64,000 nucleotides of DNA, taken from the IMG/VR virus record IMGVR_UViG_3300035698_017726, positions 50,833-114,832 of that record. One strand, given 5' to 3'. How positions within the stretch are numbered: position 1 is the first letter of the stretch; each line of letters opens with the position of its first letter. A program made the translations under genes and the position numbers. Of this stretch, positions 36,521-55,383 are shown in pieces. Under the pieces are notes generated by a model. It had not been told where the DNA came from, searched no databases, and was given only the letters and a program-made list of their open reading frames with translations. The stretch comes from a virus.

Positions 36521-36597
36521 TGGCACCCCGTAGAGGACTCGAACCTCTTACCCTCGGTTTAGAAGACCGATGCTCTATCCAGATGAGCTAACGGGGC
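36521..36597 (-). tRNA. tRNA-Arg(TCT)
   Basis: Cloverleaf, loop CT-TCT-AA, CCA. Confidence 0.93.
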
Positions 36598-36601
36598 ATA
36601 A

Positions 36602-36677
36602 TGGTGAGCGGTACTGGGTTCGAACCAGCGACCCGCAGCTTGTAAGGCTACTGCTCTTCCAACTGAGCTAACCGCCC
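36602..36677 (-). tRNA. tRNA-Val(TAC)
   Basis: Loop CT-TAC-AA, CCA. Confidence 0.93.
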
Positions 36678-36717
36678 GAGTGGCCTCGGACGCCGAAGCA
36701 CCCGAGGCCTAGTGGAG

Positions 36718-37107
36718 CTAGATGCCCCATTCCTGCATCTTGACCATCAGGCTCATGTCGATGGACACGGCCTTGGCCTTGATGTTCGCCAAGAGCTTGC
36801 GCTCGAGGTCGCTGATGATGCCGTCGCCTTCGATGTGGCTGATGAGGAACGCTGCCTCGGCGGGGTCGACCACGCCGGGGGTGTTCTCGTCGGCCAGGAC
36901 ATAGTCGGACAGAGCTTCGACGAACAGGTCGTCCCAGCTGCTGTCGTTCTCGTTGCCCTCGGTGGCATCGGCGAGCTCGAAGAGGACCGCAGCCTCCTCG
37001 GTATCGATGACGCCGTCCTCGTAGATGGCGGCCTTGAGGGCCACGACTTCATCGGAGTCGATGATGCCGTCTTCGAGGATGTCGGTCTTGAGCTGCTGCA
37101 GTGACAT
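36718..37107 (-). CDS. TerB-like acidic helical protein
   Basis: Repeated DG.ID..E motifs; next to a TerD-type gene. Confidence 0.55.
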   Translation of the reverse strand: MSLQQLKTDILEDGIIDSDEVVALKAAIYEDGVIDTEEAAVLFELADATEGNENDSSWDDLFVEALSDYVLADENTPGVVDPAEAAFLISHIEGDGIISDLERKLLANIKAKAVSIDMSLMVKMQEWGI

Positions 37108-37179
37108 GGTACCTCCCTGGTACTCTCGAGGATGTGGAACTTTGGGGCCCCACGGGTAGTCTGGATAGTCCGGCGAGGA

Positions 37180-37713
37180 CTAGGAGTTGATGACGGCCCA
37201 GAGGTCGTCGAGCTTGGAGAGGCCCTTGAGGGTGCCGCCCTTGGAGACGTTGACCAACTGCGCGCCCATGGGGCTCGAGTTGTCGATGGTGGCGATGACG
37301 CAGACGTTGCCGGTTGCGCCGGCGTCGAGGGTCACGGCGTGGTCGGTGCCGGAGTCGTCCATGAAGGACAGCTTGACGTCGCTGGAGTCGAAGCGAGCGG
37401 GGGCGCCGCTCTTCACCTGGCCGTAGTCCCAGACCAGGATGTGGACCTTCTCCATCTCGTCGATGTTGGCGATCCGCATCTGTTCCTGGTTGTCGCCGCC
37501 GCTGTCGCCGACGCCTTCGTCACCGGACAGCTCCATAAAGGGGAAGGCGTTCATGTCGCCCTTGTCGCCGAAGTACGCCAGGCCCTTACGGCCGTCCTTG
37601 GCCTCGTAGAGCGCTGCGAGGTCGAAGTCGGCGGCGGTGGTCCACTTCATGGTGATGAGAGCTTGCTTGAGGGTGGGCAGCTGTGCGGTCGCGCCCTTCT
37701 GTACGAGTTCCAT
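37180..37713 (-). CDS. TerD/TerA-family stress protein
   Basis: W..A.DFDLAALY, LSGDEG.G..GGDN.E.MRI. Confidence 0.75.
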   Translation of the reverse strand: MELVQKGATAQLPTLKQALITMKWTTAADFDLAALYEAKDGRKGLAYFGDKGDMNAFPFMELSGDEGVGDSGGDNQEQMRIANIDEMEKVHILVWDYGQVKSGAPARFDSSDVKLSFMDDSGTDHAVTLDAGATGNVCVIATIDNSSPMGAQLVNVSKGGTLKGLSKLDDLWAVINS

Positions 37714-37828
37714 GTGTTTCCCCTAGAGGAGTTTGAGGTTCGTCCCGGTCTCTCTTGGAGTCAAAGAAGAGAGCCCCAGAAATCCCAGGACATTCTTCTT
37801 ATGTCAGAAAACACAGTTAAAAAGAGGG

Positions 37829-37902
37829 TGGGCGAATTCGGACTTGAACCGAAGACCCTCTGGTTATGAGCCAGGTGCTCTAACCTACTGAGCTATTCGC
37901 CC
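37829..37902 (-). tRNA. tRNA-CAT (likely Ile2/lysidine type)
   Basis: Loop CT-CAT-AA, GGGC start; 3' end ACCC rather than ACCA. Confidence 0.8.
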
Positions 37903-38022
37903 TAAAACCTCTATCTCTCTTTGAGCTCGAACTTCTCGAAGAAGGGAGCGGCGTCCTTGCGGTTTCCGCTGATCCACATATCGTGAATCCTATGGACGAT
38001 GTACATCACTTTTCTCCCGAGA

Positions 38023-38099
38023 TGGTGGACCGGACGGGAATCGAACCCGCGACCTTCGCCTTGCAAGGGCGTTGCTCTCCCGGACTGAGCTACCAGCCC
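38023..38099 (-). tRNA. tRNA-Ala(TGC)
   Basis: Loop CT-TGC-AA, G3.U70, CCA. Confidence 0.93.
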
Positions 38100-38112
38100 A
38101 CATCTCTGTTCT

Positions 38113-39033
38113 CTAATCGATCCAGCCCACTCCTTCCATCCTGGCGGTGCCCTGATCGGTGGTTTCCGTGTTGCCCAGGATCTTCATCCACTTGGCGCAT
38201 TTCACGGTCTTGTGGTCGACGTGACGGACCTTGCCGCGTACGAAGACTTCGTCACGTCCTCTCACGGAGTGCCCGTGCTCCAGCTGCGCACCCGGCATCG
38301 TGATGAGCTCGTCGGCTACGTGCGGGTTGCCTCCGGGCCTGCCGAGGAAGGAACCGATGTTGACTCCCTTTTTGACGGCGTTCTTGGTCTTGGCCAGCGC
38401 AGTCTCGATAGCCTTGAGCTCTTCGTCGCTAGCCCGAAGGAAGAACCACTCACCCTGGCGGCGGGACAAGCGGTGCTTGCCTTCGGCCGTGTGGATAGTG
38501 GGGTGCTTCAAGCTATCGTGCGCCTGCTGGATGCTGGTGCAGGACCTGCTGAGCTCGGTGATGAAGAGCTGGCGCTCATCCAGACCCATGAGGAAGTACC
38601 GGCTACGGCCAGCGGTGGTCTGGAGCACCCAGATACCGTCTTTGCGGAGCTCCACGTTCTTGCGGACTGCGAAGCTCTGCTGCGTTTTCCAGGCCTCGAA
38701 CCAGTTGTTGGCGGTCTTGAACTGCTTCTTGAGCCTGTCGATGCCGTATCGGCCTACTACGACCCTTTCCCAGAACTCACGCTTGGGCTCGCGGACCCGC
38801 AGGATGACCTGCTTGCGCCTGTCGTCGGTGGCGGCGATGTCCGCCACGTTGCTGTCGTTGCCCCAGAAGATCTCGAACCACTCGTTGCGAGAGTTGCCCT
38901 TGGTCTTCCGGCAGATGTCCATGCCGAAGATCTCCGAGTTGCTCACGAAGGAGAACTGCTTCTCCCGAATCTTGATGACCAGTCCTGCCTTCAAGAACTT
39001 CTTCTGCAGATTCTGTGCTTTCTGGTGTGCCAT
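38113..39033 (-). CDS. Phage-type hypothetical protein
   Basis: 306 aa; RQGEWFF, GNPH and RHVDH motifs. Confidence 0.65.
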   Translation of the reverse strand: MAHQKAQNLQKKFLKAGLVIKIREKQFSFVSNSEIFGMDICRKTKGNSRNEWFEIFWGNDSNVADIAATDDRRKQVILRVREPKREFWERVVVGRYGIDRLKKQFKTANNWFEAWKTQQSFAVRKNVELRKDGIWVLQTTAGRSRYFLMGLDERQLFITELSRSCTSIQQAHDSLKHPTIHTAEGKHRLSRRQGEWFFLRASDEELKAIETALAKTKNAVKKGVNIGSFLGRPGGNPHVADELITMPGAQLEHGHSVRGRDEVFVRGKVRHVDHKTVKCAKWMKILGNTETTDQGTARMEGVGWID

Positions 39034-39087
39034 GCTTTCTCCCTAAGAAATGGCTGTAAGCTTTCGCTCACACTTCTTATAACTGAA

Positions 39088-39163
39088 TGGTGGAATAGAT
39101 GGGACTCGAACCCACAACCTACGACTTGCGAAGCCGTTGCTCTCCCAGTTGAGCTACTACCCC
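39088..39163 (-). tRNA. tRNA-Ala(CGC)
   Basis: Loop TT-CGC-AA, G3.U70. Confidence 0.9.
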
Positions 39164-39168
39164 AAAGA

Positions 39169-39244
39169 TGGTGGGCAAGACTGGACTCGAACCAGCGACT
39201 TCCTCCATGTCACGGAGACACTCTTCCATCTGAGTTACTCGCCC
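39169..39244 (-). tRNA. tRNA-Val(GAC)
   Basis: Loop GT-GAC-AT, CCA. Confidence 0.9.
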
Positions 39245-39262
39245 ATCTTTTTCTAACTAACC

Positions 39263-39324
39263 CTTGCCGGTCTTTCCGAACTGATTACCTTCATTACATG
39301 ATGAATCGCTCCCGACGACGATGA
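39263..39324 (+). promoter_or_regulatory. Putative promoter plus leaderless mini-ORF MMNRSRRR
   Basis: TTGCCG-16nt-TACCTT, ATG at 39298 seven nt after the -10; ATG ATG AAT CGC TCC CGA CGA CGA TGA. Confidence 0.45.
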
Positions 39325-39389
39325 CAGCCCCACCCCGGAAAGCGGGGTCCACGAACACCGGGCCATAAGTACGTCCAGCGACTCACTAC

Positions 39390-39467
39390 ACTCCCTTAGC
39401 TCAGTCGGCAGAGCACCGAGGTTATCGACCTTGGGGGCCGCAGGTTCAATCCCTGTAGGGAGTACCA
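39390..39467 (+). ncRNA. Atypical tRNA-like RNA (6-bp anticodon stem, loop TTATCGA)
   Basis: Acceptor ACTCCCT/AGGGAGT-ACCA, normal D and T arms. Confidence 0.7.
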
Positions 39468-39472
39468 TTTTT

Positions 39473-39578
39473 GCGTGGGTAGCTCAAGGAGGCGCCAGGC
39501 TTCGGGCCTGGATTGCCGTGGTAGAGCGCTCGACTGACCGTCGAGAGGTTGGGGGTTCGAACCCTTCCCCACGCACCA
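39473..39578 (+). ncRNA. Atypical tRNA-like RNA with ~30-nt D-loop hairpin insertion
   Basis: GCGTGGG/CCCACGC-ACCA; insert CCAGGC-TTCG-GGCCTGG; loop CTGACCG. Confidence 0.7.
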
Positions 39579-39584
39579 TTTTCT

Positions 39585-39669
39585 GCGCCGGTAGCTCAGT
39601 GGCTAGAGCACCAGTCGTCCTTCGGGGCTTGGCTGGAGGGCGGGGGTTCGAATCCTCCCCGGCGCACCA
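39585..39669 (+). ncRNA. Anticodon-less tRNA-like RNA (arm capped by UUCG)
   Basis: GCGCCGG/CCGGCGC-ACCA; arm CCAGTC GTCC TTCG GGGC TT GGCTGG. Confidence 0.7.
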
Positions 39670-39671
39670 TT

Positions 39672-39917
39672 TCAGAGAAGAACGAGTTTGCCCTCTTTCA
39701 CGAGGTCCCGTTCTCGAATCTCTGCGAGCTCCAGCTGTACTCTCTTCCCGACCAGCGCCGTTTGTGTGCCTGCCAAATGGTCCTCCAGTCGCCTAATGTC
39801 GCCCTTCAGTCGCTCATTGGGCGCGATGAAGTCCGCTGCTCGGAGGCTCGTGAACTTGCTCCCCGGCAAAGGCGTTCTGAGGGACTCTACGGAAACGCTA
39901 CCTATTTTCGCCATCAA
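39672..39917 (-). CDS. Hypothetical protein
   Basis: GGAGGA RBS, 81 aa. Confidence 0.45.
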   Translation of the reverse strand: MMAKIGSVSVESLRTPLPGSKFTSLRAADFIAPNERLKGDIRRLEDHLAGTQTALVGKRVQLELAEIRERDLVKEGKLVLL

Positions 39918-39934
39918 TCCTCCAGAGGCACTCT

Positions 39935-40312
39935 ATGGATAAGCTCTACATCGTAGTGAAGGAATCTCTCCACCCCGGTCTCAAGATTGCTCAGGCCTGT
40001 CATGGTCTTAGGCTCTTCGGCGACCGCTATCCCGACATCGATGCAAAGTGGTACGAGGAGTCCAACAACCTCGTCATCCTCCAGGCCACTGACATCGGGG
40101 AGCTCGCTGACTCTCTCGAAGGTAGGGGCCTGAAGGTCTCCAGGTTCTTCGAACCCGACCTAAAGAACGCGCTGACGGCTATCGCTGTTGAGCCTAGTGG
40201 CGGTAGGTATCTCTCCCACCTGCCCCTGGCATCCAACAAGATGGTCGTTCAGTCCAAGCCTGCTGTGCCTCTTTCGTTTTCGGGCAGAGTGGCTTGGCTT
40301 TTCGGAATGTAA
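39935..40312 (+). CDS. Peptidyl-tRNA hydrolase, PTH2-like
   Basis: KLYIVV...L.PG.KIAQACH...W......VIL...F.EPDL...LTAIA....LS.LPL. Confidence 0.85.
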   Translation: MDKLYIVVKESLHPGLKIAQACHGLRLFGDRYPDIDAKWYEESNNLVILQATDIGELADSLEGRGLKVSRFFEPDLKNALTAIAVEPSGGRYLSHLPLASNKMVVQSKPAVPLSFSGRVAWLFGM

Positions 40313-40313
40313 A

Positions 40314-40387
40314 TGGAGCGGGTAGTCAGACTCGAACTGACTTCTCCAGCTTGGAAGGCTGGGGCACAACCCATATACCATACCCGC
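40314..40387 (-). tRNA. tRNA-Gly(TCC)
   Basis: Loop CT-TCC-AA, U73. Confidence 0.9.
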
Positions 40388-40417
40388 TCGGGTAGTCTAT
40401 TTGGCTTAACGCTATGA

Positions 40418-40494
40418 TGGAGCCCACGCTCGGATTCAAACCGAGGACCTATGGTTTACAAAACCAGTGCTCTGATCAACTGAGCTACGCGGGC
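40418..40494 (-). tRNA. tRNA-Thr(TGT)
   Basis: Loop TT-TGT-AA. Confidence 0.88.
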
Positions 40495-40499
40495 TAAAG

Positions 40500-40574
40500 T
40501 GGAGCCGAAGGTCAGATTTGAACTGACGACCTCTTCCTTACCAAGGAAGCGCTCTACCCCTGAGCTACGACGGC
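40500..40574 (-). tRNA. tRNA-Thr(GGT)
   Basis: Loop TT-GGT-AA. Confidence 0.92.
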
Positions 40575-40730
40575 TTATCTTCTCCCTAAGATCTCTATAG
40601 CCTTTCTTCGCATCAGTTCCGCTTTGCAGAGCAGGAAAAGGGCAGTCATCCGGCCATGGTCTGGAATGGCGGCGGTATGTATCCCTCTGAACGCGTTCAG
40701 GGCGTTTACTACTCGTTCTGCCTCTTATGA

Positions 40731-40806
40731 TGGAGCCCCGAGTCAGATTTGAACTGACGGCCCGCTGCTTACGAAGCAGCCACTCTGACCACTGAGTTAC
40801 CGGGGC
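40731..40806 (-). tRNA. tRNA-Thr(CGT)
   Basis: Loop TT-CGT-AA. Confidence 0.92.
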
Positions 40807-40813
40807 CTAATCG

Positions 40814-41089
40814 TCAGTAGGGCAGATCTTCTCTATCGAACTCTTCCTGCGGCGTCCCTTCTCTCTGATAAGAGGTATCTTGCCGTGGAGCTGCTGGCGT
40901 AATATTGCCGAGAAGTCGATTCAGAAGCCTGTTATCACTGACCATGAAGATGTTGAGTCTGCTCTGGTCAGTCTTATCGGGCCCCATGTGGATCTTAATG
41001 CTGCCTAGCAGTCCAAATTCCAAGTAGCCCGAGTATCCACCCCGTTTAGTCTTCCACATTGCGCCCACACGGGCCCATTTCGTTGCCAT
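40814..41089 (-). CDS. Hypothetical protein (OB-like start, acidic ...DLPY tail)
   Basis: VGAMWK...YSGYLE; acidic C-terminus. Confidence 0.5.
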   Translation of the reverse strand: MATKWARVGAMWKTKRGGYSGYLEFGLLGSIKIHMGPDKTDQSRLNIFMVSDNRLLNRLLGNITPAAPRQDTSYQREGTPQEEFDREDLPY

Positions 41090-41098
41090 GTTTCTCCC

Positions 41099-41169
41099 TG
41101 GAGCGGCCGAAGGGCGACGATCCCTCTACCTCGGCAAGGCGGCGCTCTACCAGCGTGAGCTACGGCCGC
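41099..41169 (-). pseudogene. Degenerate/short tRNA-Gly(GCC)
   Basis: GCGGCCG/CGGCCGC-TCCA, TTGCC present but about 5-6 nt missing from the anticodon 3' strand/variable loop; atypical T loop. Confidence 0.65.
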
Positions 41170-41180
41170 TCAAAGTAAGA

Positions 41181-41254
41181 TGGTTGCGGGAGCGAGATTT
41201 GAACTCGCGTACCAAGGGTATGAGCCTCGTGAGTGGCCACTACTCTATCCCGCG
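41181..41254 (-). tRNA. tRNA-fMet(CAT), initiator-like
   Basis: C1:A72 mismatch, CGCGGG start, loop CT-CAT-AC. Confidence 0.85.
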
Positions 41255-41313
41255 ACACATCTAAAATGGGAGCACTCCAGTAAAGGTACAGCTCCCGTAG
41301 GTTTCTGTCAAAT

Positions 41314-41395
41314 TGGTGGGAAGAGGCAGCGGTAAAACTGCCCCAGGTCGCTGTCGACTTAGCGCCTGTCGACATATAGCGCCTGTTTTCTTCCC
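41314..41395 (-). ncRNA. D-armless tRNA-like RNA with CCA end
   Basis: GGGAAGA/TCTTCCC-ACCA; T-like arm GGCAG/CTGCC; one long irregular stem in place of the D and anticodon arms. Confidence 0.55.
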
Positions 41396-41400
41396 ATAAA

Positions 41401-41477
41401 TGGTCGGGGCGACTGGATTCGAACCAGCGACCACCTGACCCCCAGTCAGGTGCGCTACCAAACTGCGCCACGCCCCG
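41401..41477 (-). tRNA. tRNA-Pro(GGG)
   Basis: Loop CT-GGG-GG. Confidence 0.93.
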
Positions 41478-41478
41478 A

Positions 41479-41820
41479 TTATCTCTCGTAAAGAATCCCT
41501 ATGGTCTCGCAGATACGCTGGAGCTTCTGCTCGTTACCTTCTCTCTGGTGCTGAATCCATACCGCGTCAATCTTACCGCAGTGAGATGAATCACTCCGAT
41601 AGCGGTAGTGGTCTTCCTTTGCGACTCCGTCTTCGTCCATGATGCGCTGGTACTCGATGATCGAGTTGAACTCGTCTCCGACCTTTGCATTTGTCTTCCA
41701 GCCAGGAAGTTGCGCTTGATTGCCGTAGTATCTGCTCTCAATGCCGGTAACTCTGTGGAACCCTGGGTAGAAGGCGACGATGATGTCGCCTTCTACCAGG
41801 TCCTGATCGAACTCACTCAC
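41479..41820 (-). CDS. Hypothetical protein
   Basis: 113-aa ORF. Confidence 0.5.
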   Translation of the reverse strand: MSEFDQDLVEGDIIVAFYPGFHRVTGIESRYYGNQAQLPGWKTNAKVGDEFNSIIEYQRIMDEDGVAKEDHYRYRSDSSHCGKIDAVWIQHQREGNEQKLQRICETIGILYER

Positions 41821-41823
41821 TCA

Positions 41824-42639
41824 CTAGAACTTCACCTTCTTGATGAGCTCTATGGTGTAGCCAGCCTCGTCGAGGACGAAGCGCGAGAAGACTTCGTCTT
41901 CAATCAGCTGCCTGCCGACGGCGATGTAGTCCTCGAGGGTGAGCTCGCTGTCGGGGATGATCCTGACTGTCGGAGCCTCGAGGGCCAGTTCCGCAATCTT
42001 CTCCAACCGGGCCAGTGCGTCGACAGGCACGAGCTTGAAGCCTTTGGGAACGACCGAAGCACCTTCGGACGGAGAGGCTGTACTGTCCAGCTTGGCCCTG
42101 AGGGCCAAGATCTCTTCGTTCGCCAGCTCGACCTCCTTTCTGGGCTCCGCCTTCGAACGCCGGGACTTGGCGGTCTTCTTCTTGGGAGGAACCGGAGGCG
42201 GAACCTTGCCCGCTGCCTGGCTCGCTCTCTTCTCGTCTTCCTGGGCATGACGGGCAGCACTGAGACGTGCCCGACGGCTCTTCCACTTCTCGAGGTCAGC
42301 CTTGGAGACGCCCTGCATCCCCATGGCGCTTAGTTCCTTCTCTTCGTGGAAGGTTTTCTTGCCTTCGCTGACGCAGAAGGCCTTGAAGGTCGGGTAGTGA
42401 ACGCCTAGAAGCTTGGTGTTCACGGGAACGATGCCCAGCATCTCCCAGGCGTCCGGCCTCAGACGCTCGAAGCGGCTGTACGAGCACGTCACCGGGTCTT
42501 CGGGATTGTGCTCGTTCCTGTTGAGGAGGTGACGCGTCAGCGCGCCGTAGAGGTGCTGTCCCTTGAGCCAGGGCCACTTCATCAGTACTTCGGTCAGATG
42601 GACGAGAGTCTCGTCCGGAGTCAAGTTTCTTGGCTTCAC
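41824..42639 (-). CDS. Hypothetical protein
   Basis: GTG start after AGGGAG; biased codon usage. Confidence 0.6.
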   Translation of the reverse strand: MKPRNLTPDETLVHLTEVLMKWPWLKGQHLYGALTRHLLNRNEHNPEDPVTCSYSRFERLRPDAWEMLGIVPVNTKLLGVHYPTFKAFCVSEGKKTFHEEKELSAMGMQGVSKADLEKWKSRRARLSAARHAQEDEKRASQAAGKVPPPVPPKKKTAKSRRSKAEPRKEVELANEEILALRAKLDSTASPSEGASVVPKGFKLVPVDALARLEKIAELALEAPTVRIIPDSELTLEDYIAVGRQLIEDEVFSRFVLDEAGYTIELIKKVKF

Positions 42640-42658
42640 AGTATCTCCCTTGTGAAGT

Positions 42659-42735
42659 TGGTGGCTGCAGGCAGAATTGAACTGCCGACCTGCGGGGTAT
42701 GAGTCCGCCGCTCTATCCAACTGAGCTACACAGCC
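42659..42735 (-). tRNA. tRNA-Met(CAT), elongator
   Basis: GGCT start, loop CT-CAT-AC. Confidence 0.85.
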
Positions 42736-43445
42736 GTGGTTTCCGCATGCCACATGACCTTCTGGCCACAGCACACAAACTTGGTACCTTGTATGTTCCA
42801 GGAGCCCAGGAGGTGATGATGTCCGAACGCCCACAGCCTTGGTACGTGGCTGGAGTTCCTGACGACATTATCGAACATCCGGGGTACTGGTTCTGATTCT
42901 CTGCTGGAGTTGTTGTACTTCAGCGGTACTATCAGTGGGCAGTCATGGGTGACGACTACTTCTGGCTTCAGTTTGTCGTAGAGCTGAAAGAACTCATCCC
43001 ACTCTGCATGGGTAGGTTGCTCATACGCCCACCAGCTTTGCCCCTCGACTCTGTACATCTTGTCGATGCTTCTGGCTCCTCCGAAGAAGAGATGAGAGAC
43101 GCCACAGATATACAGTGGCGTAGGGCGCGTAGCCCATTCACATCCGGGAGCGAGTACCACGAGACCGTCATCTTCCTCTGGCGGTTTCTGCTGTTCATCT
43201 CTGAGTCTGCACCAGACGTCGTAGTTTTCGTGATTGCCTCCGCATGTAGTCCAGGTTGGGCCGTCTCGACCTTGCCGAGCTCGCTTGATGAAGTACCTCT
43301 TCAGCTTGTCGGAGGGATTCCAGTGGATGCCTAGGTCCCCGACCTGAACGATGTGCTTCACTCCTTCTCGGGTAGCGAGCTCATCGATCTTTGCCAGGTC
43401 CTCTATGTCCCCATGAATGTCCCCCACGTACCAGATGGTTTCCAT
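42726..43445 (-). CDS. Metallophosphoesterase (calcineurin-like)
   Basis: GDIHG, GD, GNHE, THD, GHHH. Confidence 0.9.
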   Translation of the reverse strand: METIWYVGDIHGDIEDLAKIDELATREGVKHIVQVGDLGIHWNPSDKLKRYFIKRARQGRDGPTWTTCGGNHENYDVWCRLRDEQQKPPEEDDGLVVLAPGCEWATRPTPLYICGVSHLFFGGARSIDKMYRVEGQSWWAYEQPTHAEWDEFFQLYDKLKPEVVVTHDCPLIVPLKYNNSSRESEPVPRMFDNVVRNSSHVPRLWAFGHHHLLGSWNIQGTKFVCCGQKVMWHAETTAV

Positions 43446-43459
43446 TGTCCGCTCCTAAA

Positions 43460-43534
43460 TGGTTGGGGTGGTAGGATTCGAACCCACGAATAGCGGGACC
43501 AAAACCCGCCGGCTTACCACTTGCCGACACCCCA
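43460..43534 (-). tRNA. tRNA-Gln(TTG)
   Basis: Loop TT-TTG-GT, U1-A72. Confidence 0.9.
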
Positions 43535-43541
43535 AAAGTAA

Positions 43542-43701
43542 AGTCTCCCGCGACCAGTGTGCGTCTTGCCTAAGGACGCGAGAGCAGCAGTTCTCCAGGC
43601 CCTACTCCGGACATAGGACGAGGTCCGTCGTGCCGCTTCGCTTGTGTCCGCTCTTTCAAGGATGGCTGCATCGGCCTACCTCCTCGCCGCAGACGGAGAC
43701 T
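43542..43701 (-). ncRNA. Structured ncRNA resembling the 23S rRNA GTPase-associated centre (H42-H44)
   Basis: Terminal stem AGTCTCC/GGAGACT; core GCGAGGAGGTAGGC-CGATGCA-GCCATCCTTGAAAGAG...CACTGGTCG. Confidence 0.6.
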
Positions 43702-43702
43702 A

Positions 43703-43778
43703 TGGTGATCCCAGGGGGAATTGAACCCACCATTGTCGAGATGAAAGCCCGATGTCCTGTCCGTTAGACGATGGGACC
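43703..43778 (-). tRNA. tRNA-Glu(TTC)
   Basis: Loop CT-TTC-AT. Confidence 0.9.
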
Positions 43779-43785
43779 ACAGTTC

Positions 43786-44049
43786 TTATGTCTGTTTCGA
43801 CGCGCCGATGAAGTCCTTGAGGATCTCAGCGTGCGTCTTCTCCTTGCTGAAGTTGGGCAGCTTCCGGATGTCGAACTCTTGTAGGGAGTTCACGCCTTCT
43901 GGGTCATCTGTGTAGAACCATATCGAAGGCCACTGCTGTGCCGAGTGGTAGATCGGGGCATGTCCCCGGAGGCTCACTGCCATCTCCGGCTTCTCCGGCT
44001 TCTTGTATGGGATCTGTTTGCCTCGGTAGCTCAAGCTGTACCTCGTCAT
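43786..44049 (-). CDS. Hypothetical protein
   Basis: 87-aa ORF. Confidence 0.45.
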   Translation of the reverse strand: MTRYSLSYRGKQIPYKKPEKPEMAVSLRGHAPIYHSAQQWPSIWFYTDDPEGVNSLQEFDIRKLPNFSKEKTHAEILKDFIGASKQT

Positions 44050-44178
44050 GGATGATGTTGAGTAGGCTGTGCTCCCTGCCTACGCGTTCTACTAAGCCAG
44101 CGAGCTCGAGGTCGCTGATGGTGGATGCTGCCAGGCTCTGGGGAGCCCAATAGACTCTGTTCCCCTTGCTGTGGATGA

Positions 44179-44540: not shown

Positions 44541-44558
44541 GTTCTCTCCCGTAAATAA

Positions 44559-44635
44559 TGGCACCCCAGAGAGGACTTGAACCTCTGGCCTACTGATTAG
44601 GAATCAGTTGCTCTATCCAACTGAGCTACTGGGGC
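44559..44635 (-). tRNA. tRNA-Arg(CCT)
   Basis: Loop TT-CCT-AA. Confidence 0.93.
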
Positions 44636-45529: not shown

Positions 45530-45532
45530 AAA

Positions 45533-47050: not shown

Positions 47051-47839
47051 TTATCGGTTTCTCCGGCGAGCCTTACGGTCGCCCGGTGAGTGTGTTCTGA
47101 AGCTGTGCTTGTCGAAGCCCTTGGAGTGCGCTTTCAGCTCATCGCTGATGGGCGCTGGAGGGTCGACCTGCCTAGCCATGTTGTTTCCGAGGAACATGTC
47201 CAGTTCCTGGAAGGTAGCCCACGTATCCACCTCTGCTTGGAACCCCAGCGGCTTGAGCGGAGGGTTCAGGATGATGGTGGGCCCACTGTGGTCACGGCTT
47301 ACCTGGATTACGGGCGCTTCAAACTCCCTGAAGAGCTCGTCAGGTACTTGCTGTGACTGATACTTCTCTACCCATCTGTTCCAGCCCGCAGCGTTGAAAG
47401 GGTACTCCCTCCAGCTGTTGGGCGTCTTTTCTCTCTGACTTTCGAACCACTTCTTACCCAGTGGCCGACGTCCCCATCGGTTGACCAGTCCGTGTTCCTG
47501 GGCGGTGTCGAGGATGAGCTCCGGTGAGGCACTGGCCAAAGAGATAGGAGTCTGTCTGCAGTCTACTTCCTGGTTGGCCTCGAAGGAGTACCAGCCGTAG
47601 ATTCTGCCGCAGAAGAGGACCAGTCTCCGTCTACACACTCCGGTCAGGTCGTTGGGGAATCCCGGCATAGCGCCGAACATGTCGTGGTAGGGCTTGAGCA
47701 TTGGCCAAATCTTCCGGAGGGCCGGGCCATCATTGGCGTCGCCAGCGCTGATGATTTTCTTGTGTCTCAGGTACACCAGCCGGTCAGTGGGGTCCTGGCA
47801 TCCGTCGTAGAAGTCTCTGTGCTTGCTAATGATCCTCAT
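47051..47839 (-). CDS. Phage-type hypothetical protein
   Basis: MRIISK.RDFYDG start, KGFDK.SFR end. Confidence 0.65.
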   Translation of the reverse strand: MRIISKHRDFYDGCQDPTDRLVYLRHKKIISAGDANDGPALRKIWPMLKPYHDMFGAMPGFPNDLTGVCRRRLVLFCGRIYGWYSFEANQEVDCRQTPISLASASPELILDTAQEHGLVNRWGRRPLGKKWFESQREKTPNSWREYPFNAAGWNRWVEKYQSQQVPDELFREFEAPVIQVSRDHSGPTIILNPPLKPLGFQAEVDTWATFQELDMFLGNNMARQVDPPAPISDELKAHSKGFDKHSFRTHSPGDRKARRRNR

Positions 47840-47854
47840 GCTGTCCTCATTGAA

Positions 47855-47930
47855 TGGTCGGGGTGACTGGATTCGAACCAGCGACCCCCTGCTCCCAAAG
47901 CAGGTGCGCTACCAACTGCGCCACACCCCG
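47855..47930 (-). tRNA. tRNA-Pro(TGG)
   Basis: Loop TT-TGG-GA. Confidence 0.94.
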
Positions 47931-48148
47931 ACAAAGTGCAGGAGATGAAGAACCTTTTCAGGCAGGTTCTCTTTTCGCCTTCTCCTGCAGAAGGCTAGCC
48001 CAACCGCTACGCTCCCTATGATCCAATGGCAGACCAATGTCGAACATCTTGCGATGCACCTACGACATACAGAAGCTCGAAAGCGAAGAATGGGTCTTGA
48101 AGGAGTGAGCTTCTGCTCGACCACGCAGCAACGCTCCGCGACGAACTG

Positions 48149-48225
48149 TGGTGAGACGACCCGGAATCGAACCGGGGACCCACGGCTTAAAAGGCCGGTG
48201 CTACTACCAACTGAGCTATCGTCCC
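48149..48225 (-). tRNA. tRNA-Lys(TTT)
   Basis: Loop CT-TTT-AA. Confidence 0.9.
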
Positions 48226-48229
48226 TAAA

Positions 48230-48451
48230 TGGTGGAACCGCTCGGACTCGAACCGAGAACCTCTACAACCAAATTGTATCGCTCTACCTGTCGCCCCTAC
48301 TGCTTTGGGGTTTGCCAAAATTCAGTGCTCCTCTCCAGCCCCCGCCACGGTATATGTGGTTTGGGTGCGGGTTCGGTCACGATCTCCCTCATGGCCAAAG
48401 GGTAACTTATTCGTTGGTAGCAGTAGAGGACTGTGATTGAGCTACGGTCCC
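48230..48451 (-). ncRNA. tRNA-like RNA with ~145-nt structured D-loop insertion and G3.U70 acceptor
   Basis: GGGACCG-TA-GCTC-AA[insert]GGTA-GAGC...CTCGG-TTCGAGT-CCGAG-CGGTTCC-ACCA. Confidence 0.7.
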
Positions 48452-48462
48452 AAAAGTGAAAA

Positions 48463-48542
48463 TGGCGAAGCGTACGGGATTCGAACCCGTCTGAATGTCC
48501 GGCGTGACAGGCCGGTGTCCACACCTAGCAGACCCACGCTCC
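48463..48542 (-). tRNA. tRNA-Asp(GTC)
   Basis: Loop CT-GTC-AC, G73. Confidence 0.88.
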
Positions 48543-48553
48543 TGAATAAAGGG

Positions 48554-48627
48554 TACCCCCTCTCGGGATCGAACCGAGGACCTATGGATTAAGAGTCCAG
48601 CGCTCTAGCCAGCTGAGCTAAGGGGGC
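48554..48627 (-). tRNA. tRNA-Lys(CTT)
   Basis: Loop CT-CTT-AA; 3' end ACCC. Confidence 0.88.
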
Positions 48628-48694
48628 ACAAATAGGCCAAATGTTTGAAGAGCAAAGCTCTCCTTGCATCCTTCTTATGTCAGTTCTCCCTGAA

Positions 48695-48871
48695 CTATTC
48701 TTCGAGCTCCACCTCTAGTTCTCCGGGGTCGTCAGAGCTATCGTCTTTGGCGTCTAAGTCGAAGGTCTCAACCTGCTCTTCCGCCACGATCTTTGCTTCT
48801 GCCTGAGTATCGGCCTCGACGTCGAAGTTTACGCGCTGTTCTCTTCGGTACTGACATCGATATGTATGCAT
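48695..48871 (-). CDS. Small acidic hypothetical protein
   Basis: 58 aa MHTYRCQYRREQRVNFDVEADTQAEAK...; GGGAGAG RBS. Confidence 0.5.
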   Translation of the reverse strand: MHTYRCQYRREQRVNFDVEADTQAEAKIVAEEQVETFDLDAKDDSSDDPGELEVELEE

Positions 48872-48887
48872 AGTCTCTCCCTTTAAG

Positions 48888-48964
48888 TGGCGACCCCAGC
48901 AGGATTCGAACCTGCGGCCTTACGCTCCGGAGGCGTACGCTCTATCCAGTTGAGCTATGGGGCC
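48888..48964 (-). tRNA. tRNA-Arg(CCG)
   Basis: Loop CT-CCG-GA. Confidence 0.93.
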
Positions 48965-49029
48965 GGAGTGGGAGCTCGCGATGGCCTATTAAGGCACGCT
49001 CCCAACCAATCATATTCGTGTTTCAAAGA

Positions 49030-49106
49030 TGGCATGCCCGGAGGGAGTCGAACCCACGACAACTCGGTTCGTAGCCGAGTGCTCTGTCCAGCTGAGCTAC
49101 GGGCAC
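49030..49106 (-). tRNA. tRNA-Arg(ACG)
   Basis: Loop CT-ACG-AA. Confidence 0.92.
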
Positions 49107-49117
49107 ACATACTTCTC

Positions 49118-49180
49118 AAAGAAAAAGGCCCCAGGAGAAAACTCCTGGGGCCTTTTAGCGTCGTCCTAAAGGACCCCAGG
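49118..49180 (-). terminator. Attenuator B: intrinsic terminator with competing antiterminator
   Basis: Terminator AAAAGGCCCCAGGAG-TTTT-CTCCTGGGGCC-TTTTTCTTT; CCTGGGGTCCTTTAG right after the leader stop is complementary to its left arm. Confidence 0.85.
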
Positions 49181-49270
49181 TCAGCTCGGCTCGTCATTGC
49201 GCACGATACCTTCTTGCTGCCGCTTAGCTGCGGTTACATGAGGCATCGTGGTTGGTCTGACGTCGAGCAT
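49181..49270 (-). CDS. Leader peptide B (29 aa, MLDVRPTTMPHVTAAKRQQEGIVRNDEPS)
   Basis: GAGGA RBS; 26 distinct codons in 29, almost all cognate to downstream tRNAs. Confidence 0.8.
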   Translation of the reverse strand: MLDVRPTTMPHVTAAKRQQEGIVRNDEPS

Positions 49271-49300: not shown

Positions 49301-49329
49301 GTTGTATAGAATCCTGGGATTCATGTCAA
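49301..49329 (-). promoter_or_regulatory. Sigma70-like promoter of tRNA operon B
   Basis: TTGACA-17nt-TACAAC. Confidence 0.7.
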
Positions 49330-51621: not shown

Positions 51622-51707
51622 TGGCGGAGGGAGAGGGAGTCGAACCCTCAAGGCTTGCGCTCGGCTGATTTCGAATCAACTGCAGTCACCTATCTGCTTG
51701 CCCCTCC
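51622..51707 (-). tRNA. tRNA-Ser(CGA)
   Basis: Loop TT-CGA-AA, long variable arm, G73. Confidence 0.9.
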
Positions 51708-51940
51708 ACATGCTTTCATCAGCTCTTCTATCTCCCTAAGGAACCTAGAGTCCAGAGCTGCCATAGTCTCGTCGGACATCATGTTCGTATAGGCAGCAGC
51801 GAACTTCTGGTTCTTCATGAAGTCTCTGCCGTCCAAGAGATCCTGCTTGGTGAAGACCAAGGGCTCGACGGTCCAGATAGGAAACTGCGGCCATGCTCTG
51901 ACCGACCCATCGTTCCAGGACCATCTCTCGACCATGTAGA

Positions 51941-52261
51941 TCATGGGTCCGGGATCGTGATCTGAGAGTTGTCCTTGTTACAGGGGTGGCGCAGAGCTTG
52001 GGCCATCAGAGCGATGATGTGGTCCTTAGCGAAGTCACTGACATCAGTGCTCCAGATAGGGGCGTCCATTGAGTCCTGTCCCTCTCTCATCTCTACTATA
52101 GGTCGTACCTCCCCAGTAGTTGCCCCACGTTTAGATAGGGCCAACACTACCCGGTAGATGTTGCAAAGACTGTCCCGTGGGGCGTCCAAGTCTATTTCTG
52201 CGATGACTCTGGGAAAGGTTGTGTCATCTGGTAGGGCGCAACCAATTTGTCCTGAGAACAT
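51941..52261 (-). CDS. Hypothetical protein
   Basis: 106-aa ORF, translationally coupled to neighbours. Confidence 0.45.
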   Translation of the reverse strand: MFSGQIGCALPDDTTFPRVIAEIDLDAPRDSLCNIYRVVLALSKRGATTGEVRPIVEMREGQDSMDAPIWSTDVSDFAKDHIIALMAQALRHPCNKDNSQITIPDP

Positions 52262-52545
52262 TACCAGGTCTCGTAGTCGGTGAAGTCCAACACTTTGCCG
52301 GATTGGAGATGGGTCGCGGTCTTGACGAGGCCTATCCCCGTGGGGACGAACATGAAGGCTACTCCCGCAATCCCTTTACCAGCGATGATTGATTCCTCAT
52401 CGCTGAGCTCCGCCCACCTCTTGACTCTTGCGCACTCTTCTGGCGTAAGCTCGAAGCGCACTCTCCAGGTTCCTTGGTGCGAGAAACAGGCACTTCCGTC
52501 GCTACTATCGTCTAGTTTGCTCTGTACAATTTTTTCGTCTTCCAC
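52261..52545 (-). CDS. Hypothetical protein
   Basis: AAGGAG RBS; F.PTGIG...LDFTDYE.W motif. Confidence 0.55.
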   Translation of the reverse strand: MEDEKIVQSKLDDSSDGSACFSHQGTWRVRFELTPEECARVKRWAELSDEESIIAGKGIAGVAFMFVPTGIGLVKTATHLQSGKVLDFTDYETW

Positions 52546-52558
52546 TTTCGCTCCTTGT

Positions 52559-52644
52559 TGGCGGAGAGCAGGGGAGTCGAACCCCTAAGGCTTTCGCTCG
52601 ACTGATTTCAAATCAGCTGCCGTCACCCATCGGCTTGGCTCTCC
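52559..52644 (-). tRNA. tRNA-Ser(TGA)
   Basis: Loop TT-TGA-AA, long variable arm. Confidence 0.9.
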
Positions 52645-52649
52645 AAGAT

Positions 52650-52733
52650 TGGTGCCTAGGAAGGGACTCGAACCCTCACGGCCGAAGCCACCCAGTTTTA
52701 AGCCAGGCATGTCTGCCATTCCATCACCTAGGC
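52650..52733 (-). tRNA. tRNA-Leu(TAA)
   Basis: Loop CT-TAA-AA. Confidence 0.9.
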
Positions 52734-52777
52734 AGTGTGATGTTTGTACTGTGTACCCATTATCTGGATACTGAATG

Positions 52778-52865
52778 TGGCGGAGAGTGAGGGATTCGAA
52801 CCCTCGTACCTTACGGCGCACCGCTTAGCAGGCGGGCCTCTTTGTCCTATCTCGAGCAACTCTCC
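52778..52865 (-). tRNA. tRNA-Ser(GCT)
   Basis: Loop CT-GCT-AA. Confidence 0.9.
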
Positions 52866-53167
52866 TAATTTCCGTCTTTTGGGAACTCTTCGACTACCCC
52901 TCCGATGGGGGTGCGGGTACCAAACATCTCCTCCATCTTGTCGTTGTCCACATACATCTTGGTGATGGTACCTGCGACGCCTCTTTTTCCTTCATCAAAG
53001 AGGATAACTGGTGCCTGTTCCCCGTTTCTTTTGTGCGCCTCAATCACAGCTTTGTCGTAGTAGTTCGTGCCCTTCATGCGGACAGGACCCATGTTCTTAG
53101 CCCTCTCTCCGGGGCAGACGATGTACCAGTGGTCCCCGCGTGCTTCGACGGTCCACTTCTTATCCAT
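52865..53167 (-). CDS. Hypothetical protein
   Basis: 100-aa ORF. Confidence 0.45.
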   Translation of the reverse strand: MDKKWTVEARGDHWYIVCPGERAKNMGPVRMKGTNYYDKAVIEAHKRNGEQAPVILFDEGKRGVAGTITKMYVDNDKMEEMFGTRTPIGGVVEEFPKDGN

Positions 53168-53296
53168 TGAGCTTCTCCAGCTCAGCGTCCTTGCGCATGA
53201 TGACCTCGGCTAGGTCTCTGATGGCGCTGTTGTACCTGTTCATGATTGCCGTCTCCATAGCAATTCTGTCGGCTACCCACAGCTACGGCCTATAAA

Positions 53297-53373
53297 TGGC
53301 ATGTCTGGGAGGAATTGAACCTCCAACCTTCGGATTTGGAATCCGGTGCTCTGCCTAATTGAGCTACAGACAT
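53297..53373 (-). tRNA. tRNA-Trp(CCA)
   Basis: Loop TT-CCA-AA, G73. Confidence 0.9.
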
Positions 53374-53379
53374 ACAATG

Positions 53380-53487
53380 TGGTGGAGAACAGAGGGACTC
53401 GAACTCCTCATTCACCGGCCAAGCTACCTCACAGGAAAACCTGGGTAGCTTCGCTACGTGCTCTTTCCGATTAGAAGGATGCTCCCC
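53380..53487 (-). ncRNA. Anticodon-less tRNA-like RNA with Ala-type acceptor (G3.U70)
   Basis: GGGGAGC/GTTCTCC-ACCA; TTCGAGT loop; long hairpin AAGCTACC-CAGG-TTTT-CCTG-GGTAGCTT replaces the anticodon arm. Confidence 0.65.
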
Positions 53488-53491
53488 ACAA

Positions 53492-53575
53492 TGGTGTGCA
53501 TGGAGGGACTTGAACCCTCATGTCCTAAGACACGAGGCCCTCGACCTCGCGCGTCTGCCATTCCGCCACACGCAC
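53492..53575 (-). tRNA. tRNA-Leu(GAG)
   Basis: Loop TC-GAG-GG (unusual C33), long variable arm. Confidence 0.85.
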
Positions 53576-53580
53576 ACAAA

Positions 53581-53778
53581 CTATCCAGGTACTGCGAACT
53601 TTCTTACGGTTCGCCTACCCAATTGGACCTCATCGCCAGGCTTTACGTCGGCCATGATGTCCTTCACTACCTTGCCATTGATCTTGACCCATCCCGAGGC
53701 CAACAGTCTGCGGGCCTGAGAATGGGACTGTACTACTCCGGCGTCACCCATGGCCTTGACGGCTTTGATGAACTCCAT
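53581..53778 (-). CDS. Stand-alone S4 RNA-binding domain (TyrRS C-terminal-like)
   Basis: GVVQSHSQARRLLASGWVKINGKVVKD...GDEVQLGRR; GGGAGAG RBS. Confidence 0.8.
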   Translation of the reverse strand: MEFIKAVKAMGDAGVVQSHSQARRLLASGWVKINGKVVKDIMADVKPGDEVQLGRRTVRKFAVPG

Positions 53779-53798
53779 AATCTCTCCCGTTGAAATGC

Positions 53799-53889
53799 TG
53801 CAGACCACCCACTTCGGAGTGCCCACTCGCCTATGTAGGAAGCCCGCCCCTTGCGGGACAGGGCGGGAGTTGAACCCGCATAGTCTGCA
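53799..53889 (-). ncRNA. Permuted tRNA-like RNA (YrlA/Y-RNA-like topology)
   Basis: TGCAGACT/GGTCTGCA closing stem, T arm GCGGG-TTCAACT-CCCGC, acceptor-like hairpin closed by GCAA. Confidence 0.55.
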
Positions 53890-53893
53890 TTGA

Positions 53894-53982
53894 TGGTGGC
53901 CATGGGGAGACTCGAACTCCCAAGGGGATGCATGCCCCACTGCGCCCTGAACGCAGCGCGTTTACCTTTTCGCCACATGGCC
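53894..53982 (-). tRNA. tRNA-Leu(CAG)
   Basis: Loop TT-CAG-GG. Confidence 0.9.
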
Positions 53983-53987
53983 TAAAA

Positions 53988-54071
53988 TGGTGCGCAGAGA
54001 GGGACTTGAACCCTCACACCCGAAGGCACCGGGTCCTAAACCCGGCGTGTCTGCCATTCCACCACCTGCGC
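53988..54071 (-). tRNA. tRNA-Leu(TAG)
   Basis: Loop TT-TAG-GA. Confidence 0.92.
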
Positions 54072-54187
54072 ATTTTGTCTCTTTCGCCGGCGACGATCCG
54101 GCTAAACACCGTCCCCGCCATCAAGGCTCGCAAACTCCCCGACCCGCCTGGCGTACACCCAAGGCGGCAGAAAGAGATCAGGCGATA

Positions 54188-54262
54188 TGGAGATGACGAT
54201 GGGAATTGAACCCACGCTAATGGGTTTTGCAAACCCATGCCTTACCGCTTGGCTACGTCATC
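54188..54262 (-). tRNA. tRNA-Cys(GCA)
   Basis: Loop TT-GCA-AA, U73. Confidence 0.9.
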
Positions 54263-54265
54263 CAA

Positions 54266-54341
54266 TGGTGGAGCTGGGGGGAATCGAACCCCCGACCCCC
54301 TGAATGCCATTCAGGTGCTCTCCCAACTGAGCTACAGTCCC
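54266..54341 (-). tRNA. tRNA-Ala(GGC)
   Basis: Loop AT-GGC-AT, G3.U70. Confidence 0.92.
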
Positions 54342-54430
54342 ACAATGCTAATTCAAACCTACTCAGTAACTATAGCCTGCTTTCGGTATACATCTATCTT
54401 GTGCCGTTTTGAGCAGGTCTTTTCAAGTAA

Positions 54431-54506
54431 TGGTGGTTAGGGGCGGAGTTGAACCGCCGACATAGGGATTTTCAGTCCCCCGTTCTACCAACTGAACTAC
54501 CCAACC
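54431..54506 (-). tRNA. tRNA-Phe(GAA)
   Basis: Loop CT-GAA-AA. Confidence 0.92.
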
Positions 54507-54653
54507 ACGGCGTCACCAAGGTGGCAGCAAGCCACCTATCTGCCTCACTCTTAGAGCTCTACTCAGGCCTCTTGGGGTCCGGGTAGAGACTCCTACTGGA
54601 GAGGAGATGGATATTTCTCCGCTCGAGAAGTCTATCAACATGTTTCTCCCCAA

Positions 54654-54739
54654 TGGCGGAGACGACAGGATTCGAACCTGCGGAGCTTTCACCCTCCTGC
54701 TTTCCAAGCAGGTGCCATAAGCCTCTCGACCACGTCTCC
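54654..54739 (-). tRNA. tRNA-Ser(GGA)
   Basis: Loop TT-GGA-AA, long variable arm. Confidence 0.92.
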
Positions 54740-54961
54740 TTATTGAAGGCTGAGCTGCCTGTGCCTTTCTTGCTCGTAAGCCATGAAGATCCCATCCAGT
54801 ACTGATGGGCACATCTCCAGTTGCTGCTCAGCTATCTTGAACTCGATATTCCCTGGTCCTCTGAAGTAGAGCTGGTCGGCGACCTTCTTCAGCATCCTGA
54901 CTCCCATCTGGTACTCTTCCAGAATGCTGTTCGTCCCTTCAACGGTGAGTTCAGAGGCCAT
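54740..54961 (-). CDS. Hypothetical protein
   Basis: AGGAG RBS, 73 aa. Confidence 0.5.
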   Translation of the reverse strand: MASELTVEGTNSILEEYQMGVRMLKKVADQLYFRGPGNIEFKIAEQQLEMCPSVLDGIFMAYEQERHRQLSLQ

Positions 54962-55002
54962 GGAATCTCCTAGAGCGTCCGTCCAGTCTACCGTGTAGCG
55001 GA

Positions 55003-55091
55003 TGGTGGGGGTAGAGGGAATCGAACCCACTCGGGACTTTAAGCCACCGGCTTTACAGGCCAGCCCGTCTTCCTTAGCGGTCTACACCCCC
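55003..55091 (-). tRNA. tRNA-Tyr(GTA)
   Basis: Loop CT-GTA-AA, long variable arm. Confidence 0.88.
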
Positions 55092-55099
55092 ACAGTAAA

Positions 55100-55184
55100 T
55101 GGTGCGCGAGGAGGGATTCGAACCCTCACGACTCTAGGCCACTGGAATTTGAACCCAGCGCGTCTGCCATTCCGCCACTCGCGC
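55100..55184 (-). tRNA. tRNA-Leu(CAA)
   Basis: Loop TT-CAA-AT, long variable arm. Confidence 0.9.
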
Positions 55185-55211
55185 GAAAACTACCATCGTA
55201 TTCAGAATGTC

Positions 55212-55246
55212 AAAGAAAAAGGCCCGCCTGGAGGGGCGGGCCTTTT
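55212..55246 (-). terminator. Attenuator A terminator
   Basis: AAAAGGCCCGCC-CCTCCA-GGCGGGCC-TTTTTCTTT; left arm complementary to the leader 3' end GAGGGCGGGCCT. Confidence 0.85.
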
Positions 55247-55269
55247 CATGTCGCGGTTCGCGTTGAGAG

Positions 55270-55347
55270 CTAGGCCCGCCCTCGGATCTCGGCCAGGAGG
55301 CTCGAGGCCCAATAGGAAAAGCAGGACAATGACATTACGCGGTTCAT
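55270..55347 (-). CDS. Leader peptide A (25 aa, MNRVMSLSCFSYWASSLLAEIRGRA)
   Basis: Codons 6-19 all cognate to the 14 downstream tRNAs; likely leaderless mRNA. Confidence 0.8.
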   Translation of the reverse strand: MNRVMSLSCFSYWASSLLAEIRGRA

Positions 55348-55353
55348 GCTCTT

Positions 55354-55383
55354 ACCCTAATGAGGTTCGTCTTCAGGTGTCAA
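55354..55383 (-). promoter_or_regulatory. Sigma70-like promoter of tRNA operon A
   Basis: TTGACA-18nt-TAGGGT; ATG 7 nt downstream. Confidence 0.7.

Follow-up and report, generated by a model that had tools for sequence, protein, structure and literature searches.

In a 64,000-nucleotide stretch of viral DNA (the window: bases 50833-114832 of the 114.8-kb IMG/VR virus record IMGVR_UViG_3300035698_017726, here G000, which is ~62% complete), two arrays of transfer RNA (tRNA) genes are each preceded by a short open reading frame (ORF), an intrinsic terminator and a competing antiterminator. Judging from sequence analysis, we consider it likely that both elements are ribosome-mediated, or leader-peptide, transcription attenuators that gate the phage tRNA arrays behind them. 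A preliminary description of this DNA had proposed that each array is gated by such an attenuator, with leader codons matched to its own tRNAs. This proposal is supported by codon-anticodon statistics, by antiterminators placed at the leader stop codons, by the lack of room for a promoter between each terminator and the first tRNA, and by recurrence of the layout in two distant giant phages, G002 and G010.

The 42 tRNAs that ARAGORN finds on the minus strand of the window fall by amino acid into the two sets first described. Array A (51622..55184, minus strand) comprises 14 tRNAs, namely five for Leu, four for Ser, and Tyr, Phe, Cys, Trp and Ala-GGC. Array B (36521..49106, minus strand) comprises 28, which serve the other 14 amino acids and are interspersed with co-directional protein ORFs. 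Altogether the phage carries 40 distinct anticodons. The description of the arrays as two operons is an inference; array B is 12.6 kb long with at least ten protein ORFs inside it.

Directly upstream of each array is a short ORF with a start codon and a ribosome-binding site. Leader A (55270..55347, minus strand) has 25 codons followed by TAG, and starts 9 nt past the stop of an upstream ORF of 78 amino acids. Leader B (49181..49270, minus strand) has 29 codons, with 26 distinct codons among them, followed by TGA; its Shine-Dalgarno (SD) sequence, GAGGA, lies 10-11 nt upstream and forms a duplex of -6.0 kcal/mol, compared with a genome median of -5.9 kcal/mol. A TTGACA promoter had been described at the head of each array. 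The candidate -35 boxes are present, at 55378..55383 for leader A (minus strand, inside the end of the 78-amino-acid ORF) and at 49324..49329 for leader B (minus strand, in the intergenic spacer after ORF 49349-49894), whereas the -10 boxes are weak and a consensus scan calls no promoter at either site. The TTGACA hexamer is scarce, with 17 copies on both strands of the whole record versus ~56 expected, and three of the ten minus-strand copies sit at the two leaders.

The codon content of the leaders was compared with the anticodons of the arrays by scoring the readability of each codon under standard wobble rules. Random ORFs (200,000) drawn from the codon usage of the phage served as the null, and all 642 ATG-started ORFs of 20-35 codons in the six frames of the record served for a rank comparison. 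Codons 6-19 of leader A (SLSCFSYWASSLLA; 55291..55332, minus strand) form a sampler run with 12 distinct codons, every one of them readable by array A, and this run is read by all 14 array A tRNAs, ten of the anticodons being covered by a Watson-Crick match. Array-A-readable codons make up only 30% of the codons in the long ORFs of the phage. Coverage as high as that of leader A was reached by 2 of the 200,000 random ORFs (p ~1e-5), and a run of 14 array-A-readable codons by none. In leader B, array B tRNAs read 25 of the 29 codons (the start ATG counted) and 23 of the 26 distinct array B anticodons are covered, a value equalled by 35 of the 200,000 random ORFs (p ~2e-4). Each leader ranks first of the 642 short ORFs for its own array. 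The leaders are thus enriched in codons that report on the presumed regulated product, and their overlap with the downstream anticodons is far beyond what genome codon usage would give by chance. The claim that the leader codons split in the same way as the tRNAs is borne out by this coverage and by the A/B split itself (Fisher p = 2.8e-4); the related claim that leader B lacks UNN sense codons also holds, there being no TNN among its 29 codons. Together the two leaders cover all 20 amino acids. Among the leader B codons are ones for the most distal array B tRNAs, Arg-TCT and Val-TAC, 12.6 kb off, which argues that the whole of array B is one regulatory unit.

An intrinsic terminator lies between each leader and its array. 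Terminator A (55210..55246, minus strand) has an 8-bp GC stem, a 6-nt loop and a T tract, and ends ~25 nt before the first tRNA. Terminator B (49116..49156, minus strand) has 11 GC-rich pairs extended by A-U pairs, a 4-nt loop and a T tract, and ends ~10-15 nt before the first array B tRNA. Both lie 24-27 nt past the leader stop codons. When the whole record was scanned for hairpins followed by a T tract, none of the other canonical terminators on the tRNA strand was as stable as these two (-21.4 kcal/mol for A and -28.9 kcal/mol for B). The same scan of the tRNA strand revealed no comparable hairpin inside either array and no canonical terminator of any kind inside array B. Terminators with shared flanks had been described at both array heads, and the flanks (AAAAGGCCC...GGCCTTTTTCTTTGA) do occur exactly twice in the 114.8-kb record, at the two leaders. 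Since the distance between T tract and first tRNA is only ~10-25 nt at both arrays, no promoter fits between them and the first tRNAs would be made only by read-through.

Close to the stop codon of each leader there is also the strand of an antiterminator that would use the 5' arm of the terminator, so that the two structures are mutually exclusive. In leader A the last three sense codons, GGGCGGGCC, repeat the terminator 3' arm and hence can pair with the 5' arm; together with flanking bases that overlap the TAG they constitute antiterminator strand A (55271..55282, minus strand). In leader B it is the bases right after the stop codon (CCUGGGGUC...) that repeat the 3' arm, and strand B (CCUGGGGUCCUUUA; 49167..49181, minus strand), which starts directly after the stop, pairs with the 5' arm in the same way. 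The antiterminator duplexes have energies of -25.2 kcal/mol (A) and -21.7 kcal/mol (B), and none of 1000 dinucleotide shuffles of the leader gave one as good, in agreement with the earlier description of an antiterminator at each array head. In minimum-energy folds, nascent RNA that still lacks the 3' arm adopts the antiterminator, and the full RNA adopts the terminator. We then modeled the ribosome as a 28-nt footprint, masked it at each A-site position and folded the remaining RNA. The 5' arm was held by the antiterminator at every sampler A-site position, and was freed only with the A site at the stop codon in leader A and at codons 28-30 in leader B. According to this model, the antiterminator strand is masked by a ribosome at the stop and is not masked by one stalled upstream. 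The distance from the stop codon to the terminator 3' arm is 44 nt in A and 46 nt in B. Leader A forms only a local hairpin, within the sampler; in leader B the SD region pairs long-range with the antiterminator strand in the full-length fold, and not in the nascent RNA. In a cmscan of positions 36000-56500, neither the T-box nor any of the His, Thr, Trp, Leu and Phe leader families of Rfam was matched, and the hits with E up to 0.1 were of tRNA type or due to chance.

From this anatomy we infer that the leaders are translated and that termination is conditional. Transcription would arrive from upstream and a ribosome would translate the leader. If all sampled codons are decoded promptly, the ribosome at the stop would cover the antiterminator strand, whose position overlaps the stop codon in A and is immediately next to it in B; the hairpin of the terminator could then form 44-46 nt on, and RNA polymerase would halt before the first tRNA. 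If charged tRNA is scarce for any sampled codon, slow decoding would make the ribosome lag, the antiterminator would capture the terminator 5' arm, and the polymerase would enter the array that supplies exactly those tRNAs. In this way the tRNA product would feed back on its own sensor, and each array would be made on demand.

The regions upstream of tRNA arrays in related jumbo phages had been suggested as a place to look for a conserved short ORF plus terminator. We reached distant giant phages through the topoisomerase and through a protein adjoining one of their arrays, mapped their tRNAs and examined 205 array heads, and the layout was found in G002 and G010. The genome of G002 is 441 kb and AT-rich, and its topoisomerase is 39% identical to that of the window phage. 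It contains a TTGACA-17-TATAAT consensus promoter followed by a leader with the peptide YPYHPYPYHP, a -26 kcal/mol terminator and an array of His, Tyr, Pro, Tyr and Pro tRNAs; the chance of such a His/Tyr/Pro run is ~1e-10 per position. A second G002 leader, with 8 Leu in 23 codons (p = 4e-4) and a terminator, precedes three Leu tRNAs. A Lys-rich 12-codon ORF ahead of a Lys, suppressor, Lys, Gln array in the same phage is suggestive only. In G010 (350 kb), a 44-codon leader and a terminator precede a 19-tRNA array. The leader makes isoacceptor choices that suit the array (AGC three times for Ser-GCT, CTT four times for Leu-GAG, and CGT and CGA for Arg-ACG) and has 14 consecutive readable codons (p ~1e-4). 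Its antiterminator is a perfect 10-bp pairing near the end of the ORF, equalled by 2 of 1000 shuffles. From the G010 stop codon to the 3' arm there are 46 nt, so that the range across leader A, leader B and G010 is 44-46 nt. When leaders and arrays were permuted over the five leader-array pairs, the observed score was reached by the true pairing alone (1 of 120 permutations). The survey revealed no convincing leader at the array heads of G001, G006-G008 or G011-G014; the device is recurrent but not universal among the giant phages surveyed. That phages with no more than 39% topoisomerase identity, or with no detectable kinship, share the layout suggests a class that is widespread and has been overlooked.

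Several candidates in these phages were rejected. The strong terminators immediately upstream of tRNAs in G006 and G007 serve as ordinary gene terminators and are followed by promoters, and a Lys-rich ORF that precedes two Lys tRNAs in G010 is out of frame. Within the window, a Ser-rich ORF before Ser-CGA at 51910 proved to be an out-of-frame reading of a real gene, with one TCG codon only. Separately, upstream of tRNA-Ile-TAT in G002 (locus L018, G002:239250-240050, minus strand) there is an extended -10 promoter and an ORF of 24 codons that has ATA twice near its end; a perfect 22-nt palindrome overlaps these ATA codons and the stop and has no T tract. This arrangement may represent a different kind of codon-matched control. 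G001, G002 and G010 each have a suppressor tRNA with anticodon CTA (L010:2868, L011:2129, L014:703 and L055:3215), which hints at TAG read-through or recoding.

A number of observations weigh against gating by attenuation. In the window leaders, equilibrium folding always favours the terminator, and the switch must therefore be kinetic. The folds of either leader show no clear 1:2 pause or anti-antiterminator hairpin, which predicts that an untranslated leader would read through. Leader A has a weak to moderate SD duplex (-4.0 kcal/mol, vs the genome median given above), and the -10 boxes are weak at both leaders. Leader A also includes 9 B-set codons, and the A-set codons CTC and AGC appear in leader B. 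With about one occurrence of each codon per leader, low sensitivity to a mild shortage is to be expected. The phage also encodes an RNA polymerase beta'-like protein of its own, which may behave in its own way at the leader terminators. Comparative material is thin as well: no variants of the leaders occur in the contigs of four salt-lake runs, which leaves no variation to compare, and no close relatives of the phage are present in the collections searched, so that leader conservation and covariation have no comparison set. Outside the window, the G002 His/Tyr/Pro antiterminator is not significant versus shuffles, and the majority of the surveyed giant phages have their arrays on plain promoters and have no such leaders.

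We also weighed two other accounts of the same elements. The hairpins might do no more than end transcription of the upstream genes, the short ORFs might arise by chance or encode unrelated micro-proteins, and the arrays might be expressed from their own promoters or by leak. In the giant phages G006 and G007 tRNAs are indeed preceded by a terminator and then a promoter, the leader promoters have weak -10 boxes, and a second TTGACA occurs downstream of terminator A, at 55213. A promoter there can be discounted, however, since transcription from it would start within the tRNA, and before the first array B tRNA there is no room for one. Such an account also leaves the codon match (p ~1e-5 and 2e-4, with both leaders first of 642 ORFs) and antiterminators that exceed all 1000 shuffles to coincidence, and would have to do so again for the codon-matched layouts of G002 and G010, and we regard it as highly improbable. 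The other account accepts that the leaders are translated and codon-matched but has them act through Rho-dependent polarity, ribonuclease (RNase) processing or the stability of the leader transcript, with the hairpin as a processing or stability element. It draws on G002, where the hairpins of the Lys leader and the Ile-TAT leader lack a good T tract and the His/Tyr/Pro antiterminator is weak. Both hairpins of the window, in contrast, are textbook terminators with T tracts and a strong competing antiterminator at the stop, and this makes a non-terminator route very improbable for them.

Attenuation itself remains our preferred reading, and within it the nature of the trigger is a further point. 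Phage tRNAs are known to counter tRNA-cleaving defences. The attenuators might respond to host defence, with anticodon nucleases or host shut-off destroying tRNAs and the replacements being deployed only after the attack. Sampling each codon about once would suit all-or-none tRNA loss better than graded starvation, the leaders jointly cover all 20 amino acids, and the 40 distinct anticodons of the phage would provide the replacements. Against this, nothing in the DNA identifies the trigger, no nuclease, inhibitor or repair gene is linked to the leaders (the Pfam matches nearby are limited to a metallophosphatase, a weak, below-cut-off DHH match, DUF7873 and GIY-YIG), and simple product feedback explains the same anatomy. 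We hold a defence trigger to be possible but rather doubtful; host anticodon nucleases in that role, as proposed in the preliminary description, are a plausible speculation, and the data are explained just as well by simple feedback on tRNA supply. By the same measure we would only tentatively extend the idea to the two leaders as a two-channel, whole-code sensor of translation health, in which codons for all 20 amino acids are shown isoacceptor by isoacceptor and loss of any one host tRNA species would switch on the array that holds the replacement. If true, phage tRNA arrays would be inducible counter-defence cassettes and not constitutive codon-usage supplements.

Leader-peptide attenuation has been a textbook mechanism since the trp operon, as a sensor of amino-acid supply that controls enzymes. 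The closest relatives of the phage elements in design are the attenuators of enterobacterial amino-acid operons (ilvGMEDA for Ile/Leu/Val, thr for Thr/Ile, and trpL, hisL, leuL and pheL), which likewise combine a short ORF carrying regulatory codons with a terminator and an antiterminator between which the ribosome position decides; in the trp attenuator the stop-to-terminator spacing is of the same order as in the phage leaders. Unlike these, the phage elements would regulate the tRNAs that decode the leader itself and not biosynthetic enzymes, and they sample 7 and 14 amino acids with about one codon per isoacceptor, whereas enterobacterial leaders have runs of 1-3 amino acids. They also differ from the trp operon in having no clear 1:2 hairpin, so that an untranslated leader is predicted to read through. 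The pheST (pheM) attenuator of E. coli likewise places a component of the translation machinery under attenuation and senses charged tRNA, but it controls a synthetase, responds to one amino acid and resides in a cellular genome. T-box riboswitches also read tRNA status through codon-anticodon pairing and a terminator/antiterminator switch; they differ in binding uncharged tRNA directly, with no ribosome and a single specifier codon, whereas the phage elements hold translatable ORFs. Mycobacterial leaderless polycysteine short ORFs (bioRxiv 10.1101/834739) are likewise tiny ORFs with a run of cognate codons that control a downstream operon; they respond to cysteine supply for metabolic genes and are not known to gate tRNA genes. 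As in these mycobacterial attenuators, leader A and the Leu leader of G002 may be leaderless or coupled.

The tRNA arrays of T4, T5 and mycobacteriophages are viewed as a supplement or a counter-defence that compensates for the host tRNA supply, and the searchable published accounts of these arrays do not include leader-peptide control of transcription. That no attenuator of this kind had been described for tRNA arrays agrees with our full-text literature searches, which found no account of leader-peptide control of tRNA genes. A Phe leader before the E. coli tRNA-Phe genes was considered as a precedent but is absent at pheV of K-12, which has a promoter only. Applied to tRNA genes, attenuation would close a direct loop in which tRNA scarcity slows the ribosome and a slow ribosome yields more of that tRNA, and would give demand-driven control to phage tRNA arrays that are usually seen as passive codon-usage supplements. 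It becomes testable when and why large phages express tRNAs, and whether these answer tRNA-targeting defences. Leaders with one codon of each kind would also be natural designs for multiplex decoding-speed sensors, usable as reporters.

The leader regions were matched without differences by contigs from salt-lake metagenomes, run X1 covering both leaders and runs X3 and X4 covering leader A. The matching runs come from several different studies and years, and identical contigs in independent runs indicate that the sequence is real. The source appears to be an uncultured large myovirus-like phage from a salt lake with few recognisable proteins, among them a topoisomerase II large subunit and a 1521-amino-acid ORF, one end of which is sheath-like. 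The long variable arm of the phage tRNA-Tyr (89 nt, ARAGORN) indicates a bacterial host. Upstream of the window, a 2057-amino-acid ORF contains RNA polymerase Rpb1 domain 2, the beta'-type catalytic region (G000:C1:28468-28878; 77.5 bits, or 104 bits when a neighbouring match in the same frame is added), so that the phage encodes its own multisubunit-type RNA polymerase. Neither leader region had a blastn match among 50,697 phage records, IMG/VR searches with the proteins flanking the leaders gave no relatives, and a DHH-like neighbour protein has only three distant homologues among 5.8 billion proteins.

Further features lie in and around the arrays. The count of 42 canonical tRNAs given in the preliminary description stands for the minus strand; a tandem of three more tRNA-like genes occupies 39390-39669 of the plus strand, inside the minus-strand array (Rfam 47.6-57.9 bits), one with the anticodon ATC and one 103 nt long. 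Degenerate tRNA-like sequences at 41102-41169 and 45865-45938 (minus strand) score 27 bits, just below the Rfam cut-off, and the anticodon-like triplet of the former is GCC, the reader otherwise missing for GGT in leader B. A TTGACA box and then a GGGAGC...GCTCCC hairpin with ATTTT occupy positions 41260-41311 (minus strand), immediately before tRNA-Met (41254), and may act as an internal promoter or control point within array B. A gene for a GIY-YIG endonuclease (36169-36504, minus strand; Pfam E = 2e-12) directly follows the last array B tRNA.

After the DUF7873 gene (Pfam E = 3e-74) there are two tRNA-like modules, at 49988-50260 (minus strand) and 50314-51054, whose long inserts weakly resemble YrlA of the Y RNA-like family (36.9 bits, with a gathering score of 69). 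DUF7873 homologues are present in 65 phage records; in Rhizobium phage RHph_TM30 the copy is located within a tRNA array, together with a gene for a TROVE (Ro60-like) protein. This cultured phage was considered as a further case on account of the array around its DUF7873 gene, but it has no such leader. A third strong hairpin (49919-49953, minus strand; -20 kcal/mol), followed by TTCCCTTTTT, sits just after the Y-like RNA and before ORF 49349-49894, and is likely the end of the array A transcription unit.

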